Shown: positions 14,934-24,289 of the stretch, piece by piece | Layout: each line of letters opens with the position of its first letter | How positions within the stretch are numbered: position 1 is the first letter of the stretch | Source of the DNA: an uncultured Clostridia bacterium | Lineage (GTDB): Bacteria; Bacillota; Clostridia; Christensenellales; UBA1242 | Reading direction: 5' to 3' | Assembly (NCBI GenBank): GCA_937895935.1 | Contig: CALBKX010000004.1 | Span: 99-64,098 of the forward strand | Length of the DNA stretch: 64,000 nt | Position numbers and translations under genes: made by a program | The notes under the pieces: model-generated | Told to the model about the DNA's origin: nothing | Seen by the model: only the letters and a program-made list of their open reading frames with translations | The model's database searches: none

Positions 14934-16058
14934 ATGATTGAAGTAAAACAAATATCTAGCAAAAAAGATATAAAAACTTTTGTTGATTTTCCAACAAAAT
15001 TATATAAAGGTGTTAAGGAATATTCTTATCCACTTAGAAGTGATGAACTTAAAATGTTTAATCCTAAAAAGAATGTTTCTTATAAAGATTGTGATGTCGC
15101 AACTTTTTTAGCTTATAAAGATGGAAAGGTTGTGGGAAGAATTGCGGCTATGGTGCAAAAACTTTATAATAATAAAATGAATGAAAAACGTGTACGTTTT
15201 ACTCGTTTTGACTGCATTAATGACCAAGAAGTAGCAAATGAAATTTTTAATACTGTTGAAAATTGGGCAAAAAATCAAGGAATGGACACTGTGCATGGAC
15301 CTCTTGGATTCAACGATTTAGATTGTGAAGGCTTGATTGTTGAAGGCTTTAATGAAAGATGTACATATGAGGAAAGGTATAATTTTGAATACTATAAGGA
15401 TTTAATTGAATCTTGCGGTTATCAAAAAGAAATTGATTGGCTTGAAAGGAAAATTTATCCACCAAAGGAAAAAAATGAAAGGGTTGATAGAATTGCTGAA
15501 ATCGTAGCTAAAAGATATAAATTAAAATTTGCAAAAACAAAATCTAAAAGGCAATTTTTAAAAAAATATAAAGAAGGTATATTACAAGTTTTAGATGAAG
15601 CGTATAGTCCTTTATATGGTGTTGTTCCTTACACTGAGGAAGTAAAAAAACAACTTTTATCTCAATTTAAAACTTTTTTGGACTTGCGTTTTATGTTTGT
15701 CATAGTAAATGAAAAGGACGAAGTTGTATGCTTTGGTGTTTCTATCCCTCAATTGAATGAAGCGTTGTACAAATCAAAAGGTAGATTGACGTTACCCGCT
15801 ATATTTAAAGTGTTAAGAGCATTGAAATCACCAAAAGTTGTTGATTTTGCAATTATTGGCGTTAGACCTGATTACTCGAATGAAGGCGTTGGCGCTCTTG
15901 CTATAAAATATCTTATGGACAATATGGAAAAAGAAGGGGTGGAATACTGCGAAACAAATTTGTGCTTAGAAAATAATGCAAAAATAAATTCTACTTGGCA
16001 ATATTTTAATCACGATGTTCATCGCCGTAGACGTGCATACTTTAAAAAGATAGGTTAA
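14934..16058 (+). CDS. GNAT-family N-acetyltransferase-like protein
   Basis: 374 aa. C-terminal FAIIGVRPDYSNEGVGALAIKYL resembles GNAT motif A. Substrate unknown. Confidence 0.5.
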   Translation: MIEVKQISSKKDIKTFVDFPTKLYKGVKEYSYPLRSDELKMFNPKKNVSYKDCDVATFLAYKDGKVVGRIAAMVQKLYNNKMNEKRVRFTRFDCINDQEVANEIFNTVENWAKNQGMDTVHGPLGFNDLDCEGLIVEGFNERCTYEERYNFEYYKDLIESCGYQKEIDWLERKIYPPKEKNERVDRIAEIVAKRYKLKFAKTKSKRQFLKKYKEGILQVLDEAYSPLYGVVPYTEEVKKQLLSQFKTFLDLRFMFVIVNEKDEVVCFGVSIPQLNEALYKSKGRLTLPAIFKVLRALKSPKVVDFAIIGVRPDYSNEGVGALAIKYLMDNMEKEGVEYCETNLCLENNAKINSTWQYFNHDVHRRRRAYFKKIG

Positions 16059-16070
16059 AAGGAAAGATTT

Positions 16071-17540
16071 ATGGAAAATACACAAAATTTGTCTAATGAA
16101 TTTGATATTAGAAAAGAAAAAATAAATATACTTGAAAAAAATGGTGAAATTGTATATAAAGAAAAATTCGAAAGAACTAATACAATTGAAGAAGCGAGAA
16201 CTTTGGGCGATGGTGCAAAAGTTAAAATTGCAGGTAGAATTGTTTTTAAACGTGTTATGGGTAAATTTGGATTTATGCAAATCCGTGACCTTAAAGCAAA
16301 AATTCAAGTAAGTGTTGGCATTAACGAGTTGGAACCTGAAAAATATGATTTTTATAAAAAAATGATTGATATCGGTGACTTTGTTGGCGTTGAAGGTGAA
16401 ATATATACAACTCAAACAGGGGAAATAACTGTTAGAGCATTTAATGTTACTCTTCTTTCTAAAGCATTAAGACCTCTTCCAGAAAAATTCCACGGATTAA
16501 CTGACTTGGAAGCAAAATATCGTCAAAGATATTTAGATTTAATTTCTAATGAAGAAACAAGACAGGTTTTTATTGGTAGAAGTAAACTTTTAGGCTTTAT
16601 AAGAAAATATTTAGGTGAAAATGGGTTTTTGGAAGTGGAAACTCCAATTTTACAAAGTGCGGTTTGTGGGGCAAGTGCTAAACCTTTTTTCACTCATCAC
16701 AATGCTCTTGACAAAGAAATGAATTTACGAATAGCTCCTGAAACTTACTTAAAACAATGCATTGCTGGCGGGTTTGATAGAGTTTTTGAAGTCGCAAAGT
16801 GTTTTAGAAATGAAGGTATGGACACACAACACTTGCAGGAATTTACACAAGTTGAATGGTACGCATCTTACTGGAATTTTGAAGATAATATTAAATTTTT
16901 CCAAGGTTTTATAAAAAATTTATTGTTGGAATTAACCGGTAAAACAACCATTGAAAAAGATGATGTGACTCTTGATTTTGGAAAAGAAAATTTTGATAGA
17001 ATAAATTATGTTGAAAAAATGAGAGAAATTCTTGGCTTTGACTTTTTAGACTATAATGACCCTATTGAACTTAAAAACAAAGTTATTGAAACAGGAATTT
17101 TTACTGCTCAAGATTTGAATGATTATAAGTCTGTAAGTCAAATAATTGATTTCATCTACAAAAAGAAAATCCGTGAAAACATTATTCAACCAACGATTCT
17201 TTATAATTATCCGGCTGTTTTAATACCTCTTGCAAGACGTAACGATAAAGATTCAAGAATTATTGATGTTTTCCAAGTTGTTGTTATGGGAACTGAACTT
17301 TGCAAAGCATATTCAGAACTTGTAAATCCTATACAACAACGCAAAGCTTTCGAGGCGCAACTTGAAGCAAAAAAACAAGGTGATGACGAAACTATGGACT
17401 TGGATGAAGGTTTTATGCTTGCAATGGAACATGGTATGCCACCAATCTCTGGACTTGGTTGCGGACTTGATAGATTGCTTATGCTTATTTATAACCAACC
17501 ATCAGTTAGGGATGTTGTGTTGTTTCCGATTATGAAGTAA
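16071..17540 (+). CDS. lysS: lysine--tRNA ligase (class II)
   Basis: OB-fold segment VKIAGRIVFKRVMGKFGFMQIRD, motif 2 FRNEGMD..EFTQVEWY, and motif 3 MPPISGLGCGLDRLLM. Confidence 0.9.
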   Translation: MENTQNLSNEFDIRKEKINILEKNGEIVYKEKFERTNTIEEARTLGDGAKVKIAGRIVFKRVMGKFGFMQIRDLKAKIQVSVGINELEPEKYDFYKKMIDIGDFVGVEGEIYTTQTGEITVRAFNVTLLSKALRPLPEKFHGLTDLEAKYRQRYLDLISNEETRQVFIGRSKLLGFIRKYLGENGFLEVETPILQSAVCGASAKPFFTHHNALDKEMNLRIAPETYLKQCIAGGFDRVFEVAKCFRNEGMDTQHLQEFTQVEWYASYWNFEDNIKFFQGFIKNLLLELTGKTTIEKDDVTLDFGKENFDRINYVEKMREILGFDFLDYNDPIELKNKVIETGIFTAQDLNDYKSVSQIIDFIYKKKIRENIIQPTILYNYPAVLIPLARRNDKDSRIIDVFQVVVMGTELCKAYSELVNPIQQRKAFEAQLEAKKQGDDETMDLDEGFMLAMEHGMPPISGLGCGLDRLLMLIYNQPSVRDVVLFPIMK

Positions 17541-17892
17541 AGGCGGGTAAATTATTCGCTTCGCTTAAGGATGACGCCTTAAAGGGCGTCATAACCCGCT
17601 CATCGAACTAATTTACCCGCCTTAGGGGAAGCCACTTGGCGAAGCGGGGCTCCGAAGTTTGAATTTACTTATGGATGCGGTTCTAAAGCTCGCATAACCC
17701 GTAAATTCAAATCAAAACACCTTTAGGGGAATAAAACCACTTGGCGAAGTATATCTTCGCGGGTGTTTTTTTTATAATTGGGTAAATTATTCGCTTCGCT
17801 TAAGGATGACGCCTTAAAGGGCGTCATAACCCGCTCATCGAATTAATTTACCCGCCTTAGGGGAAGCCACTTAACGAAGCGGGACTCCGAAT
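17541..17892 (+). repeat. three tandem GC-rich structured repeat units (A 17541..17657, B 17658..17773, C 17779..17892); candidate ncRNA or repeat family
   Basis: Each unit is a long hairpin (A/C arms GGGTAAATTA / TAATTTACCC; B arms TTTGAATTTAC / GTAAATTCAAA) followed by the tail TAGGGGAA..CCACTT(GG/AA)CGAAG and a small hairpin. A and C are near-identical. B shares the structure and the inner motif GGATG.CG...TAAAG..CG.CATAACCCG. The orientation given is only that of the motif as read. Confidence 0.65.
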
Positions 17893-18127: not shown

Positions 18128-18156
18128 TTGACAAGGGGTACTAGGTATGGTAAACT
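18128..18156 (+). promoter_or_regulatory. sigma-70-type promoter of the metallophosphoesterase operon
   Basis: TTGACA, 17 nt spacer, TAAACT. GAAGGGG RBS and ATG at 18178. Confidence 0.55.
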
Positions 18157-18177
18157 TTTAAGTGAAAGAAGGGGAAA

Positions 18178-19284
18178 ATGGAAGACGCAAAAAAGAAAAT
18201 TAAAAAACTTAAAAACCCAAATGATATAAGGACTATTTCTGATATTGATTTGAGATTAAAAAGTTTTAAAGAGCAAATTAAGGCTGACGATTTTAGTCCT
18301 ATTAAAACTATATTTAAGGATTTATCTCAGCATAGTCAAGTTATGCTTTTGGTTTTGAATGATTTACATATAGGTTCGCCGGGGTGTAATATTGATAAAA
18401 TTATTAGATACTTAAAACAAGTTAGAAATTTGCCTAATTGTTACATAATTTTAAATGGTGATTTAATGAATAATGCAAACAATTTAGGTAAATCAAGTCC
18501 ACTTGAAAATGATTTATCTCCTATGAACGAGCAAAAAGTTATTCATACACTTTTTTCTGATCCAATTTTAAAAGAAAAAATTATATGTTCAACAAGTGGT
18601 AATCACGAAAGTGGTGCAAGGGCTAAGGATTCAGGACTTGATTCGCTAGTTACGCCAATGGCAACTTTAAACATTTTGGACATTTATGCTAGATATATGG
18701 CAAATGTTGTCATAAGATTAAAATGTCCATACACCACAAGTGGTTACACTGATTTTAAAATTTTAGTAAGGCACGGAAGTGGACTTAGTGGACAGGCGGG
18801 AAAAGTTATTGATGGTATGTTTGCGTTATGTCAAAAATTTGGTAATTTTGATATGGTGGTTCAAGGACATACACACAAAAATATTTATTCTTCGGAAGAT
18901 GTTGTTTATCAAAACGATAAATACTCTTGTTTAAAAAAGAGTGTAACACCAATAAATATTCCTGCCTTAGAGGAGGCTAGTCAATATGCAATGGAGTCTG
19001 CTTATCCACCTCCAAACACTGATAATAGTATAATTTGTGTGAGAGCTACTTTTAATTATGATATTTTAGATTCTTCACTTAACGATGGGTTTAAAGTGCT
19101 TCCTTATAAATTTAATATTGACACCATAAGTTTAGATAGGCCAGAATTGGTTAAATTTGGTGACAAAATTATTCCTCAAGCAAAATTTATCTCACAAGAA
19201 AAATTGGAAGAAATTGCAACAAGTATGGCTAAAAAAGTGACATCTAAAGCTCGAAAACCTAAAAATTTAGAAAGAGAGGTTTAA
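18178..19284 (+). CDS. calcineurin-like metallophosphoesterase (all five motifs intact)
   Basis: Motifs LNDLHIG (DxH), LNGDLMNN (GD), SGNHE (GNHE), VRHGSG (H) and QGHTHK (GHxH). Confidence 0.8.
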   Translation: MEDAKKKIKKLKNPNDIRTISDIDLRLKSFKEQIKADDFSPIKTIFKDLSQHSQVMLLVLNDLHIGSPGCNIDKIIRYLKQVRNLPNCYIILNGDLMNNANNLGKSSPLENDLSPMNEQKVIHTLFSDPILKEKIICSTSGNHESGARAKDSGLDSLVTPMATLNILDIYARYMANVVIRLKCPYTTSGYTDFKILVRHGSGLSGQAGKVIDGMFALCQKFGNFDMVVQGHTHKNIYSSEDVVYQNDKYSCLKKSVTPINIPALEEASQYAMESAYPPPNTDNSIICVRATFNYDILDSSLNDGFKVLPYKFNIDTISLDRPELVKFGDKIIPQAKFISQEKLEEIATSMAKKVTSKARKPKNLEREV

Positions 19285-19287
19285 TAT

Positions 19288-20484
19288 ATGTATAAACTTG
19301 AAGATTTAGAAAAAGACATACAAAATTATCAATCAAATGAGAATAATCTTCCTAGAGGTAAACACGCGCTTGTTAAATTGCATGAATCTGTAAAATTTTT
19401 GGATATATGTGTTTTATCTAACATTAACATAGGTTTAACAGGAGCAAGTTCAAAAACATCAAAAATTGATAAGCCTTTTAGAATAAAAAAATTTAAAGCA
19501 CATATAGCGGAACTTGTAAAGGACCCAAATGCAAGGATTATGCTTGGTGGCGATTTGTTATATTATCCAAATGGTGGTAAAAAGTTTAGAGAAATTTATT
19601 CTCCTAATTATGATGAACAAATAGAAATGCTTGCTGAAATTTTGGAACCTGTTAAAGATAAAATTATTGGTGCTTATGATGGCACAGATGAAATTAAAAT
19701 TTTTGAAAAAGATGGCGTTAACGCAACTTTAGCACTCCTTGAAAGACTTGGCCTTAAAGATAGATATTTTGGGCAAATGGCAGAGATTGATTTTGAATTT
19801 AAAAATGATTACACAAACGGCTGTCCAAAAGTTGTTCATATGTTATTTGACCACGGATTTTTAGTAGCGAATGTTATGAACACGGTTGCAAAGAAAACAG
19901 AAGGTTTACAATCAAAAATTTCAGGGAAAGATTTTTATTTTACAAGCCACTATAACAAACTATTCATAGAAAAAATTGCAACTTTAACTCAAGAAAATGG
20001 AACTCAAGTTGTAAAAACTCCTTGCTATTTTGTGTCAGTTGGCGGTTATAGAGATTTTCCAAATAGACTTACATCAAATAGAAATGTTTCTCCAAGCAGT
20101 ACTAATAATGGAGTAATTAGAGTTTTTGTGGCACCTAATCCAGATAGAAACAACATTAGAGGAAATAACTATCTAGGTGAACCACAATACAAAATTTGTC
20201 AAGAATTCATCAATTTTGGAACATTAATGTCAAATCATATTGATTATGACTTGTGCGAAGAAATTATGAGATTAAATGAACAAAACACCTTAAACAAAGA
20301 TTTACTTGTTGCCTTGTTAGAGCAAAAAATTGACCAAATAAGCAAACAAAATGTGGAACAAGTTTTGGATAAATTTTATGGTGAGCAGGAAGCAAAAACT
20401 TTAAAGGAAAGCAAAAAACAACGATTGAAACAAGTAGTTGAAAAAGTAATAATTGATGAAAGCAGAGATGGAGGTAGAGAATGA
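19288..20484 (+). CDS. metallophosphoesterase paralog with degenerate metal-binding motifs
   Basis: Aligns block by block with the upstream protein: VLSNINIG vs LNDLHIG, LGGDLLYY vs LNGDLMNN, DGTDE vs SGNHE, FDHGF vs VRHGS, TSHYNK vs QGHTHK. GAGAGG RBS. Starts 4 nt after the upstream stop. Confidence 0.7.
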   Translation: MYKLEDLEKDIQNYQSNENNLPRGKHALVKLHESVKFLDICVLSNINIGLTGASSKTSKIDKPFRIKKFKAHIAELVKDPNARIMLGGDLLYYPNGGKKFREIYSPNYDEQIEMLAEILEPVKDKIIGAYDGTDEIKIFEKDGVNATLALLERLGLKDRYFGQMAEIDFEFKNDYTNGCPKVVHMLFDHGFLVANVMNTVAKKTEGLQSKISGKDFYFTSHYNKLFIEKIATLTQENGTQVVKTPCYFVSVGGYRDFPNRLTSNRNVSPSSTNNGVIRVFVAPNPDRNNIRGNNYLGEPQYKICQEFINFGTLMSNHIDYDLCEEIMRLNEQNTLNKDLLVALLEQKIDQISKQNVEQVLDKFYGEQEAKTLKESKKQRLKQVVEKVIIDESRDGGRE

Positions 20485-20720
20485 TTAATGGTGTAAGAAC
20501 AAGTATAGATGGTGATCACTGCATCTATTGTGATGCAAAAGTTGTTGACGGAGTTTACAATTTTTGCCCAAAATGCGGAAATGCGTTAAATGTTAATGCA
20601 ATAAAATTGAAAGAACAACAAACTAAAAGAATTCAAATTGAACTTTTAGATGAACTTGCTTATTTAATTGAAGATGAAAAATCTTTAAAAATCATTTTAG
20701 ATAAAACAAAATCTATTTAA
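20481..20720 (+). CDS. small zinc-ribbon protein
   Basis: ATGA overlap with the upstream gene and a GGAGGT RBS. CIYC...CPKC ribbon followed by a predicted helix. Confidence 0.65.
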   Translation: MINGVRTSIDGDHCIYCDAKVVDGVYNFCPKCGNALNVNAIKLKEQQTKRIQIELLDELAYLIEDEKSLKIILDKTKSI

Positions 20721-20728
20721 ATTTGTTT

Positions 20729-20763
20729 AAAACGACATCGAACAAAATCGGTGTCGTTTTTTA
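20729..20763 (+). terminator. intrinsic terminator
   Basis: AAAACGACATCG / CGGTGTCGTTTT stem with a T-run. Confidence 0.7.
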
Positions 20764-21044
20764 AATAATCAGTTTAACTTAACTAAAAAATAAAAATCGA
20801 CATTTTATAGGTTTCATTTTATATAAAGTAAAAATTATCAACTTAAGGTTGGTGGATATGATTGTTTTATGCAAGAAAAACCTTAGTCTTTCTTTTTAAG
20901 TAAAAAATATCCATTTTAGTAAAATGAAGCAAAAGTTTTTTGTTTTAAAAAATTCCATTTTGATGAATGATTATATTTAAATTAAAAAAAAGTTAAAAAA
21001 TTATTAAAAATCTTTTGACATTATTTTATAATTTGCTAATATAT

Positions 21045-21093
21045 ATGTATATATGTTGTGATTTAAAATTTATAAAAACACAACATATTGTAT
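21045..21093 (+). promoter_or_regulatory. inverted repeat resembling NrdR boxes upstream of nrdD
   Basis: ATATGTTGTG (21051..21060) and CACAACATAT (21079..21088) are exact reverse complements. Each resembles half of the NrdR consensus acaCwAtATaTwgtgt. They lie between a TTGACA at 21015 and the nrdD start. Confidence 0.35.
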
Positions 21094-23892: not shown

Positions 23893-23965
23893 AAAAAATA
23901 CTTTTTTTGAATGTCGTTGCTCTTTTATTGCAAACTATGTTAAAATGATTTTAAAAGGAGCACAT

Positions 23966-24289
23966 ATGGATAAAGAGGAAAGATTAAAAATATACAAACA
24001 AGCAGAAACACTTTGGGGGCTTGTTGCTCAATATGATCAAGCAATTGAGGAGATGGGAGAACTTATTGTTGCAATAAATAAGTACAAACGCAAATGCTTG
24101 TATGGAGAGTATGCCCAAAATGCTAAGGTTGAAGCAAATTTAATTGAAGAAATAGCAGATGTTAAAATGTGCCTTGAACAACTAGAAGATTTTATGGGAA
24201 AAGAAAAAGTAGACGAAGTTTTTGATAAAAAAATAAATAAGTTACAAGAAGAAATTAAAGAAATGTCTAAAAGGTGTAAAAATAAATAA
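23966..24289 (+). CDS. MazG-like all-alpha NTP pyrophosphohydrolase
   Basis: AAGGAG RBS before ATG 23966. EEMGELIVAI...LIEEIADVKMCLEQL matches the MazG-type EExxE/D helix pattern. Confidence 0.55.
   Translation: MDKEERLKIYKQAETLWGLVAQYDQAIEEMGELIVAINKYKRKCLYGEYAQNAKVEANLIEEIADVKMCLEQLEDFMGKEKVDEVFDKKINKLQEEIKEMSKRCKNK

Follow-up and report, generated by a model that had tools for sequence, protein, structure and literature searches.

What is the role of a bacterial operon that couples a metallophosphoesterase (MPE) to a seemingly inactivated paralogue of the same enzyme and to a small zinc-ribbon protein, and does such a trio belong to a system that has already been described? This question is raised by a locus in the stretch of DNA analysed here (the window, 64,000 nucleotides), which comes from an uncultured Clostridia bacterium. 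A first-pass annotation, made from the sequence of the window, had read three tightly linked genes with one promoter and one terminator, had found no SbcC/Rad50-type ATPase partner, had recognised no known system and had suggested a pairing of catalytic and non-catalytic subunits. We refer to the three products, in gene order, as P1, P2 and P3.

Organization of the operon

The three open reading frames lie on the forward strand at 18178-19284 (P1), 19288-20484 (P2) and 20481-20720 (P3), and they are packed as tightly as first described: the TAA stop codon of P1 is followed by 3 nt (TAT) and the ATG of P2, and P2 and P3 overlap by ATGA. Such packing is general, with intergenic gaps or overlaps of at most 16 nt in every lineage carrying the operon. 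A sigma-A-type promoter with an extended -10 element occupies 18128-18156 on the same strand and consists of TTGACA (18128-18133), a 17-nt spacer with TG at 18148-18149, and TAAACT (18151-18156). Of the 13 orthologous loci compared, 11 have an equivalent TTGACA-17-TGnTAnAAT arrangement 30-45 nt ahead of P1, and two (L006 and L017) are unclear in this respect; conservation on this scale means that the promoter is not a chance match in AT-rich DNA. Inspection by eye of the 13 aligned P1 upstream regions revealed no LexA or other operator, the promoter alone being conserved. The ribosome-binding site of P1, GAAGGGG, was read directly from the sequence at 18167-18174 (+).

Downstream of P3, an intrinsic terminator spans approximately 20731-20763 (+), with a GC-containing stem of 10-11 bp, a 6-nt loop and a T-run. 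A simple terminator scanner missed this hairpin, which was detected by comparing its folding energy with that of shuffled sequences (-18.6 kcal/mol, z = -5.8, with none of 200 shuffles folding as well). The three genes lie between this promoter and this strong hairpin, as in the first-pass description.

The metallophosphoesterase P1

P1 (368 aa) is the catalytic member of the trio. Its match to the Pfam family Metallophos (PF00149; 34.9 bits against a cutoff of 21.5, E = 2.8e-8) assigns a generic domain only, and it also matches the phage family phrog_7339 (E = 1.3e-28). All five calcineurin-like motifs of the superfamily (DxH, GD, GNH[ED], H and GHxH) are present, as had been noted at first pass, and the eight metal-binding and catalytic residues (D62, H64, D95, N142, H143, H199, H231 and H233) do not vary among 47 sequences. 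All P1-like proteins keep the full set of eight.

The AF2 model of P1 (pLDDT 81) predicts the four-layer alpha/beta sandwich of the MPE fold, and Foldseek pairs this model with many MPE structures at a probability of 1.0. The architecture comprises an N-terminal helix, the MPE core with its complete binuclear site, a beta-rich C-terminal extension, terminal helices, of which one is predicted at residues 340-356, and a basic tail. Both termini are rich in lysine, and the pI of the protein is 8.7.

The pseudo-enzyme P2

P2 (398 aa) is homologous to P1. The two proteins match each other by BLASTP (E = 7e-8), their families align by hhalign with a probability of 99.3% (E = 7e-21, 264 columns), and P2, like P1, matches phrog_7339 (E = 5.5e-12); the Pfam scan returned no qualifying family for it. 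Its AF2 model (pLDDT 82), which has MPE structures among its Foldseek matches, predicts an MPE fold to which a 12-residue basic insertion after motif I and a 59-residue C-terminal helix (residues 320-378) are added. Homology and predicted fold place P2 in the MPE superfamily, and its active site departs from it: the positions occupied in P1 by D, H, D, N, H, H, H and H read N, N, D, T, D, H, H and N in P2, a loss of five out of eight.

The first-pass annotation had listed these losses as DxH to SxN, GNHE to GTDE and GHTH to SHYN. The last two stand, but the first is one register off: D62 corresponds to N45 and H64 to N47, and the motif reads NxN. Similarly, the statement that P2 has lost most of its ligands is right as to the five substitutions, but D89, H189 and H221 are still present in the P2 proteins of this clade, where metal site 2 thereby keeps three of its four ligands. 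Conserved basic residues are found at the old pocket. P2-like proteins as a whole lack from five to all eight of the ligand residues, the complete loss occurring in distant relatives, and the division into active enzyme and pseudo-enzyme holds across both the P1-like and the P2-like families.

The sequence of P2 is otherwise strongly constrained. More than 90 columns are invariant in 32 orthologues, and dN/dS is 0.12-0.17; the ratio is well below 1 for P1, P2 and P3 and similar to that of lysS, with dS being saturated. Judged from this conservation, P2 and P3 are functional proteins, and P2 is under strong purifying selection.

The zinc ribbon P3

P3 (79 aa) is a four-cysteine zinc ribbon with a C-terminal half that is compatible with helix formation. 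The assignment draws on weak matches to zinc-ribbon families of Pfam, none of which qualifies, and on the cysteines themselves: C14, C17, C29 and C32, the CxxC..CxxC pattern recognised at first pass, are invariant in 25 orthologues together with G33, N34 and others. The tail may be helical, its sequence being compatible with a helix (14 Pro or Gly among 1049 residues, clustered at a likely turn around residues 65-67); its amphipathic periodicity is not clean.

Distribution and evolution

Fourteen GTDB species of uncultured gut Clostridia carry the trio with its genes in this order, and so do at least four lineages that are far more divergent (L032, L034, L035 and L036), P2 identity falling to approximately 23%. 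P3-like genes follow P2-like genes in distant lineages. Co-occurrence, which the first-pass annotation had named as a test of its reading, is found in every related genome with enough sequence, with order and tight coupling preserved even at this low identity. The loci are always chromosomal and lie amid housekeeping genes, the flanking genes across loci being lysS, nrdDG, uvrA, transketolase, tilS, rplI and the CCA-adding enzyme. Every species of the clade carries the trio at a syntenic housekeeping locus, with a divergence that tracks that of lysS and nrdD; in one subclade, the trio is found at a different chromosomal site.

Neighbourhoods vary from lineage to lineage, without a conserved fourth gene or regulatory motif that would suggest a link with DNA or RNA metabolism. 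In none of the loci examined, the window included, is the trio flanked by an ATPase gene, in keeping with the earlier remark on SbcC/Rad50-type partners, and its surroundings contain neither an integrase nor phage or other defence genes. P2 was not found in plasmids, and neither P2 nor P3 was found in IMG/VR; phage matches were weak and fell on the same single MPE genes that P1 matches. The context of the trio is non-mobile and non-defence.

One lineage (L026) has P1 and P2 without an adjacent P3, from which it follows that P3 may not be strictly required. On one metagenomic contig (L003), P2 is split into two ORFs, the full-length ORF being intact in all other loci. Lineage L029 has just one MPE, which is of the active type and shares the C-terminal extension; it is followed by a ribbon resembling P3 (BLASTP E = 1e-7). 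This MPE is basal to P1 and P2 in an NJ tree, and the combination of one MPE with a ribbon looks like the state that preceded the duplication; a metagenome scan with the single-MPE form returned one short contig.

Proposed function

For this chromosomal operon, we propose a model in which it would be vertically inherited and constitutively transcribed, and in which its product would be a hetero-oligomeric binuclear metallophosphoesterase whose sole active site comes from P1. P2 would go back to an old duplication of this enzyme and would have lost catalysis but been kept as an obligate structural or substrate-binding partner, an ancestral homodimer thereby becoming a pseudo-symmetric heterodimer. 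The zinc-ribbon adaptor P3 would probably bind, through helices at its C-terminus, to the long helices that P2 and P1 have at theirs, and the helices predicted by AF2 (residues 320-378 of P2 and 340-356 of P1) appear suited to bundling. Such a complex would most likely be an exonuclease or end-healing enzyme that hydrolyses phosphodiester or phosphomonoester bonds at the ends of nucleic acids, and it would work without an SMC or Rad50-type ATPase.

We incline towards this reading of the trio as a housekeeping MPE complex, with P1 as catalyst, P2 as scaffold and P3 as adaptor, probably acting on nucleic-acid ends. The data show the structure of the operon, the homology, the state of each active site, the deep conservation of the trio and its genomic context; the complex, its stoichiometry and its substrate are what we infer. 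For a physical complex, translational coupling of the genes and their strict co-inheritance are indirect evidence. That the operon encodes a conserved MPE module with one active site and with a pseudo-enzyme and a ribbon as obligate partners can be held with good confidence, and the assignment of the substrate to nucleic acid is put forward tentatively. The lean towards nucleic acid comes from the fold matches to Mre11, to polymerase B-subunits and to the 3'-5' exonuclease DP1, the annotation of phrog_7339, the basic character of P1 and the zinc-ribbon partner.

This analysis defines two protein families without any annotation, the P2-like pseudo-MPEs and the P3-like ribbons, both of which remain in strict linkage with an active metallophosphoesterase in bacteria separated by deep divergence. 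It provides a clear bacterial case of duplication, catalytic death and obligate retention of a pseudo-enzyme, of which the apparent pre-duplication form persists. The carriers are uncultured gut Clostridia, in which conserved operons of this kind are hard to reach experimentally, and it is worth mentioning that this operon is small enough for expression and assay.

Alternative functions

The same architecture could be a housekeeping phosphodiesterase or pyrophosphatase for a small molecule, either a cyclic or linear nucleotide (a cNMP, a 2',3'-cNMP, Ap4A or pApA) or a lipid or sugar phosphate, with P2 and P3 as regulatory subunits, a reading that we consider possible if rather unlikely. Although MPEs of this kind are usually single-subunit homo-oligomers without a zinc-ribbon partner, Rv0805 (a cNMP phosphodiesterase), LpxH, GpdQ, the Ap4A hydrolase SapH and purple acid phosphatase are all among the top Foldseek matches of the predicted structures, with scores close to those of the nucleases, and neighbours in BFVD are auto-labelled 'ApaH type'. 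The residues D89, H189 and H221 of P2, together with the basic residues of the pocket, could form a ligand-sensing site. On the other hand, the phosphodiesterase models of NCBIfam are not matched (best E = 0.1), and the basic tails and the zinc ribbon better suit a polymeric substrate.

A role in RNA-end healing seems improbable to us; here the enzyme would resemble the MPE domain of Pnkp, act as a 2',3'-cyclic phosphodiesterase or as a 3'-phosphatase, and cooperate with an RNA ligase or in tRNA repair. In L029, a T4 Rnl1-like RNA ligase (PF09511) is encoded two genes upstream of the single MPE and its ribbon, and a class IIb aminoacyl-tRNA synthetase is also near, but adjacency to an RNA ligase is seen in this one locus only. 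Elsewhere, the trio adjoins lysS, tilS, a pseudouridine synthase and the CCA-adding enzyme, tRNA-related neighbours which are nonetheless common housekeeping genes and are in some cases on the opposite strand. The relevant chemistry, 2',3'-cyclic phosphodiesterase and 3'-phosphatase, is that of the MPE phosphatase domain of CthPnkp (PMC2190708). However, P1 has GDLMNNA where the lambda-phosphatase/Pnkp clade has GDxxDRG as motif II, and PDB searches, by sequence and by profile, returned no similarity to lambda phosphatase or Pnkp.

More doubtful still is an anti-phage defence system or domesticated phage module, in which a phage-derived MPE effector would be joined by a sensor/adaptor pair. 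Clade-wide syntenic presence and a divergence that follows lysS and nrdD are unlike the patchy occurrence of defence islands, and neither the three proteins of the window (E <= 1) nor ten divergent members (E <= 0.1) matched PADLOC-DB v2. The nearest relatives of P1 are indeed phage and prophage MPEs, with a BFVD structural match (E = 8e-18) far better than any in the PDB, and the subclade with the trio at another chromosomal site would also fit, but these phage relatives are always single genes; the absence of P2 from plasmids, of P2 and P3 from IMG/VR, and of integrase, phage or defence genes near the trio likewise speaks against this reading. Lastly, the view of P2 as a functionless decaying duplicate, and of the trio as gene order inherited within one clade, would account for the lost catalytic residues and for the split P2 of L003 but is effectively refuted by the conservation data, that is, by the invariant columns, the low dN/dS, the ORF intact elsewhere and orthologues down to approximately 23% identity.

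Comparison with known families

The trio does not correspond to a described system, and the first-pass annotation had likewise recognised none; the homology searches, which could have refuted that reading, assign the MPE pair to no characterised family. PADLOC and NCBIfam gave no match for the trio, single-sequence and profile searches of the PDB returned nothing meaningful, and Pfam gives the generic Metallophos domain for P1 only; nor is the trio described in the literature searched, which covered YydB/YydD, MPEs with a zinc ribbon, phage calcineurin-like anti-defence and RNA repair. The Foldseek TM-scores of the predicted structures to every solved MPE are low (<=0.45 normalised by query), the closest solved folds being PolD DP1, Mre11, Rv0805 and LpxH. 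YydB-YydD (9a6c) was also among the fold matches and was rejected as generic MPE similarity, given an rmsd of 14-20 Å and the lack of a YydD-like gene nearby.

The closest sequence relatives are the phage MPEs of phrog_7339, single-gene proteins of ~256 aa with 25-35% identity, which also provide the best fold matches for the model (in BFVD, TM-score 0.71 normalised to target). The profile of this family matches both P1 and P2 over the MPE core, and the motifs LNGDLMNNA, GNHE and GHTH are held in common. Its annotation as 'DNA repair exonuclease' is by homology only. Unlike the trio, the phage MPEs are always encoded by single genes, in phage or prophage genomes, with neither a dead paralogue nor a ribbon partner, and they lack the N-terminal helix and the ~100-residue C-terminal beta/helical extension; the chromosomal proteins, with these additional N- and C-terminal regions, form their own clades apart from them.

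P2 taken alone recalls Vps29, one of its top predicted fold matches, in which the MPE fold is likewise kept and the catalytic residues lost, with a presumed role as a scaffold. Vps29 is a eukaryotic protein of ~180 aa and part of retromer, whereas P2 is bacterial, has ~400 aa and is paired with an active paralogue. Mre11 and SbcD resemble the trio MPEs in that an MPE nuclease core is followed by an extra domain and C-terminal helices, and both are among the fold matches for the P1 and P2 models (TM-score ~0.3, and rmsd ~20 for P1). Mre11 enzymes act as dimers; in the trio, by contrast, one of the two protomers would be catalytically dead, no locus contains an SbcC/Rad50 ATPase, and neither Mre11_DNA_bind nor SbcD_C is matched in Pfam and NCBIfam at E <= 1.

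The top solved-structure match for the P1 model is PolD DP1 (E = 1.7e-6, 290 columns, rmsd 5.8), and polymerase B-subunits are also among its fold matches. In this family, the zinc module of a partner protein is docked by MPE domains, some active, as in DP1, and others inactivated, as in the B-subunits, an arrangement conceptually like that of an active or dead MPE with a zinc ribbon. However, the TM-score is ~0.41, Pfam DNA_pol_E_B (PF04042) is not matched at E <= 1, the P1 model contains no OB-fold and no gene for DP2 or a polymerase lies next to the trio; what is seen may be no more than the fold common to the superfamily. The trio could, although we think it unlikely, be a housekeeping machine for processing nucleic-acid ends in AT-rich, mostly uncultured Clostridia-like bacteria, that is, an Mre11- or DP1-like nuclease in which the dead paralogue and the ribbon replace the Rad50/SbcC ATPase or the polymerase zinc-finger partner. 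If true, this would constitute a bacterial counterpart of the replicative polymerases of archaea and eukaryotes, where a PDE subunit, active or inactive, is paired with a zinc module, and, should DNA or RNA ends be the substrate, an ATPase-independent architecture would be added to the MPE nucleases represented by Mre11, SbcD and DP1.

Transcription unit and flanking regions

The genes for an active metallophosphoesterase (MPE; P1, 368 aa), a catalytically dead paralogue (P2, 398 aa) and a small zinc-ribbon protein (P3, 79 aa) were called as ORFs on the forward strand at 18178-19284, 19288-20484 and 20481-20720, respectively. Their tight linkage, described in the first-pass annotation, can be read directly from the sequence: the P1/P2 junction is TAA-TAT-ATG, leaving a 3-nt gap (TAT), and P2 and P3 share an ATGA overlap. 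Purine-rich ribosome-binding sites are present for P1 (GAAGGGG), P2 (AGAGAGG) and P3 (GGAGG), and spacing inside the module is at most 16 nt in all lineages, which implies translational coupling. The shared promoter proposed earlier, TTGACA-17-TAAACT (18128-18156), has an extended -10 TG. Since promoter-like matches are frequent by chance in AT-rich DNA (27 found vs 18 ± 4 expected), its credibility comes from conservation: 13 orthologous loci were compared, and 11 of them (all but L006 and L017, where it is unclear) carry a TTGACA, ~17 nt, TGnTAnAAT element 30-45 nt 5' of P1, in sequence that is otherwise unalignable among them. By the established promoter consensus, it is a vegetative sigma-A-type rather than a sporulation-sigma promoter. 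The proposed shared terminator corresponds to a hairpin 3' of P3 (-18.6 kcal/mol, z = -5.8, by folding), and the upstream lysS has its own terminator-like hairpin at 17744-17760. P1-P2-P3 therefore form one independent transcription unit. Across this unit (18178-20720) the 845 encoded residues include no tryptophan, which lysS and other neighbours do contain; since Trp occurs in some orthologues, its absence here, where the genome is AT-rich (29% GC), may be fortuitous.

The structured repeats noted beside lysS are two 112-nt direct repeats, 96% identical (17545-17656 and 17780-17891), in the lysS-P1 spacer (17540-17891), each delimited by inverted arms that match perfectly over 15 nt (AAGGCGGGTAAATTA / TAATTTACCCGCCTT). 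When folded, one copy gives a long hairpin (-51.4 kcal/mol, z = -4.4), and the arm sequence occurs three times in the 64-kb window against 0.12 expected, always in this spacer; the repeats look like a MITE- or REP-like structured element. The spacer measures ~0.2 kb in L005, 0.64 kb in the window, 1.0 kb in L006 and ~1.8 kb in L014, and 5' of the trio promoter there appears to be a hotspot for insertions. On the other side of the operon, a palindrome, ACACAACATATTGTAT (21078-21093), lies downstream of the predicted nrdD promoter (21015-21042) and before the start of nrdD, where an NrdR box is expected. It differs from the NrdR-box consensus at two positions and is not significant alone in the AT-rich window (2 matches vs 2.5 expected).

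An intact and a degenerate active site

P1 scores above the Pfam Metallophos threshold, and its motif set is complete, as originally claimed: D62, H64, D95, N142, H143, H199, H231 and H233, which make up the full binuclear-site and catalytic set, are invariant in an alignment of 47 relatives. P2 has no Pfam, NCBIfam or PADLOC match; it is homologous to P1 (BLASTP E = 7e-8; hhalign of the two families, probability 99.3% over 264 columns) and matches the phage MPE family phrog_7339 (E = 5.5e-12). Its eight ligand positions are occupied by N45, N47, D89, T133, D134, H189, H221 and N223. The reported loss of most metal ligands thus holds for five of the eight positions, but metal site 2 keeps three of its four ligands in P2 of the window clade. 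Likewise, the loss of DxH is real, but the replacement reads NxN (N45, N47), the earlier SxN being one residue out of register; the changes of GNHE to GTDE (T133, D134) and of GHTH to SHYN (H221, N223) match the aligned residues. P2 is conserved despite these losses: across 32 orthologues, more than 90 columns are invariant. Pairwise dN/dS values, approximate because dS is saturated, are 0.07-0.13 for P1, 0.12-0.17 for P2 and 0.09-0.24 for P3, compared with 0.07-0.10 for lysS.

The AF2 models of P1 (pLDDT 81) and P2 (pLDDT 82) have in common an N-terminal helix, the MPE sandwich and a beta-rich extension that is lacking in phage relatives; both also have a C-terminal helical part, at 340-356 in P1 and as a single 59-residue helix (320-378) in P2. 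A conserved 12-residue basic insertion in P2 (K59, R65, K68) adjoins the former active-site entrance. Many P1 and P2 orthologues finish in a Lys/Glu-rich low-confidence linker and a short G-(G)-[RK]-E-like tail (for example ...DGGRE or ...GREG), encoded in the window at 19200-19284 and 20400-20484, and in P2 a hydrophobic V-I-I-D-E patch precedes this end. Such a tail could act in both proteins as a docking peptide for some further partner. On one metagenomic contig, L003 (9157-10402), a frameshift divides the P2 orthologue into two ORFs (124 and 300 aa); three otherwise near-identical contigs carry an intact 418-aa P2. The frameshift is an assembly error or marks a pseudogene at strain level.

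P3 is the CxxC..CxxC ribbon first described, with its four cysteines (C14, C17, C29, C32) invariant together with G11, D12, F28, P30, G33, N34 and L36. Apart from a probable turn around residues 65-67, Pro and Gly are nearly absent from its C-terminal half. This pattern suggests a pair of helices; the half lacks a clean amphipathic periodicity.

Distribution and evolution

All orthologues of P1, P2 and P3 (40-100% identity) are from MAGs of uncultured Clostridia or from gut metagenomes; in GTDB, scanned at one genome per species, P2 occurs in 14 species of gut origin (human, mouse, rabbit, roe deer and yak). By tblastn the order P1-P2-P3 is kept in every locus with enough sequence. The trio co-occurs in other genomes and is strictly co-inherited. 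The placement between lysS and nrdDG noted for the window is syntenic in most loci; one subclade carries the trio at another chromosomal site. The neighbours are ordinary chromosomal genes, and the context is neither mobile nor variable: transketolase, uvrA, a YetF-family protein, a flippase, lysS, nrdDG and HI0933-like flavoproteins in the window, and elsewhere tilS, acpS and recX, rplI and recD2, or the CCA-adding enzyme and rmuC. Two further neighbours, conserved and syntenic, match no Pfam family at E <= 1e-5: a 114-aa ORF 3' of nrdG (23945-24289) and a 374-aa ORF 5' of lysS (14934-16058), the latter with a faint Acetyltransf_1 hint in gene-call tables.

A profile search with the P2 alignment against 1.84 billion cluster representatives recovered ~18 further full-length P2-like representatives, well beyond the window clade. 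In the gene contexts examined, complete trios occur in L032 (371 + 420 + 66 aa), L035 (378 + 394 + 81 aa) and L036 (377 + 397 + 81 aa), and a trio cut by the contig end in L034 (partial P1 + 389 + 78 aa); L026 is a duo (376 + 388 aa) with no adjacent P3. L029 encodes a single, fully active MPE (358 aa) that shares the C-terminal extension, and next to it a P3-like ribbon (85 aa; BLASTP E = 1e-7). Upstream of this pair (L029 4739-7837) lie genes for a T4 Rnl1-like RNA ligase (PF09511), for a 295-aa protein full of Cys/His-rich CGC/CxC repeats, and for a membrane protein of 324 aa that has a (DH)n run. RNA ligases are uncommon on bacterial chromosomes. As regards the substrate, this adjacency, seen once, is only an anecdote.

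In a neighbour-joining tree, built without bootstrap, all P2-like proteins form one clade and all P1-like proteins another, with the single form basal to both and the phage MPEs (~256 aa) outside all of these. The single form and every P1-like protein keep 8/8 ligands; each P2-like protein lacks between 5 and all 8 of them. The simplest history is that a phage-like MPE acquired extensions at its termini as well as a ribbon partner, and then duplicated once long ago, after which one copy lost catalysis yet was retained everywhere.

Proposed mechanism and relation to known systems

The operon is real: one transcription unit encodes one intact binuclear active site, in P1, along with a conserved non-catalytic paralogue and a conserved zinc-ribbon protein. 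The interpretation in the first-pass annotation is supported. MPEs commonly act as dimers, as established for Mre11, SbcD, Rv0805 and MJ0936; because of this, and because a single-copy form exists, the most likely arrangement of P1 and P2 is a pseudo-symmetric heterodimer that has a single active site. At the C-termini, the long helices of both proteins probably bundle with the helical half of P3, which would place its zinc ribbon as an adaptor or nucleic-acid-binding element, and the basic insertion of P2 would suit non-catalytic binding of a phosphate-bearing substrate. As to the substrate, the weakest step of this mechanism, we lean towards nucleic-acid ends, because the structural neighbours include DP1 and Mre11, the closest PHROG carries an exonuclease annotation (by homology only), P1 has a basic pI (8.7) and Lys-rich tails, and the module includes a zinc-ribbon partner. 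By fold, however, small-molecule phosphodiesterases score just as well.

PDB sequence and profile searches returned no solved homologue. The best PDB fold match of P1 is DP1 (E = 1.7e-6, TM 0.41, rmsd 5.8 Å over 290 columns), but membership of the DP1 or B-subunit family is rejected, there being no OB fold, no PF04042 match and no polymerase gene nearby. Nor is the system Mre11/SbcD: as first noted for the window, no SbcC/Rad50-type ATPase partner is present, and this holds at every related locus examined; family-specific domains are lacking and the TM-score is ~0.3. Neither the window nor the divergent members have a PADLOC match to a known defence system. P2 is absent from IMG/VR and from plasmids, and its phage-genome matches are weak and fall on the same single MPE genes that P1 matches.

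By far the best fold matches come from BFVD and are uncharacterised phage MPEs (E = 8e-18, TM 0.71, target-normalised), some auto-labelled 'DNA polymerase II small subunit' or 'ApaH type'. The close sequence relatives (~256 aa) are lone genes in phage or prophage regions. Literature searches turned up no account of an active MPE with a dead paralogue and a ribbon, in keeping with the first-pass annotation, which did not recognise the trio as a described system, and P2 and P3 belong to families without annotation. The trio would gain interest should the complex turn out to process DNA or RNA ends without an ATPase. Its chemistry is not categorically new; the operon is a new, deeply conserved variant within the MPE superfamily, in which an active enzyme is joined by an obligate pseudo-enzyme paralogue and a zinc-ribbon subunit.
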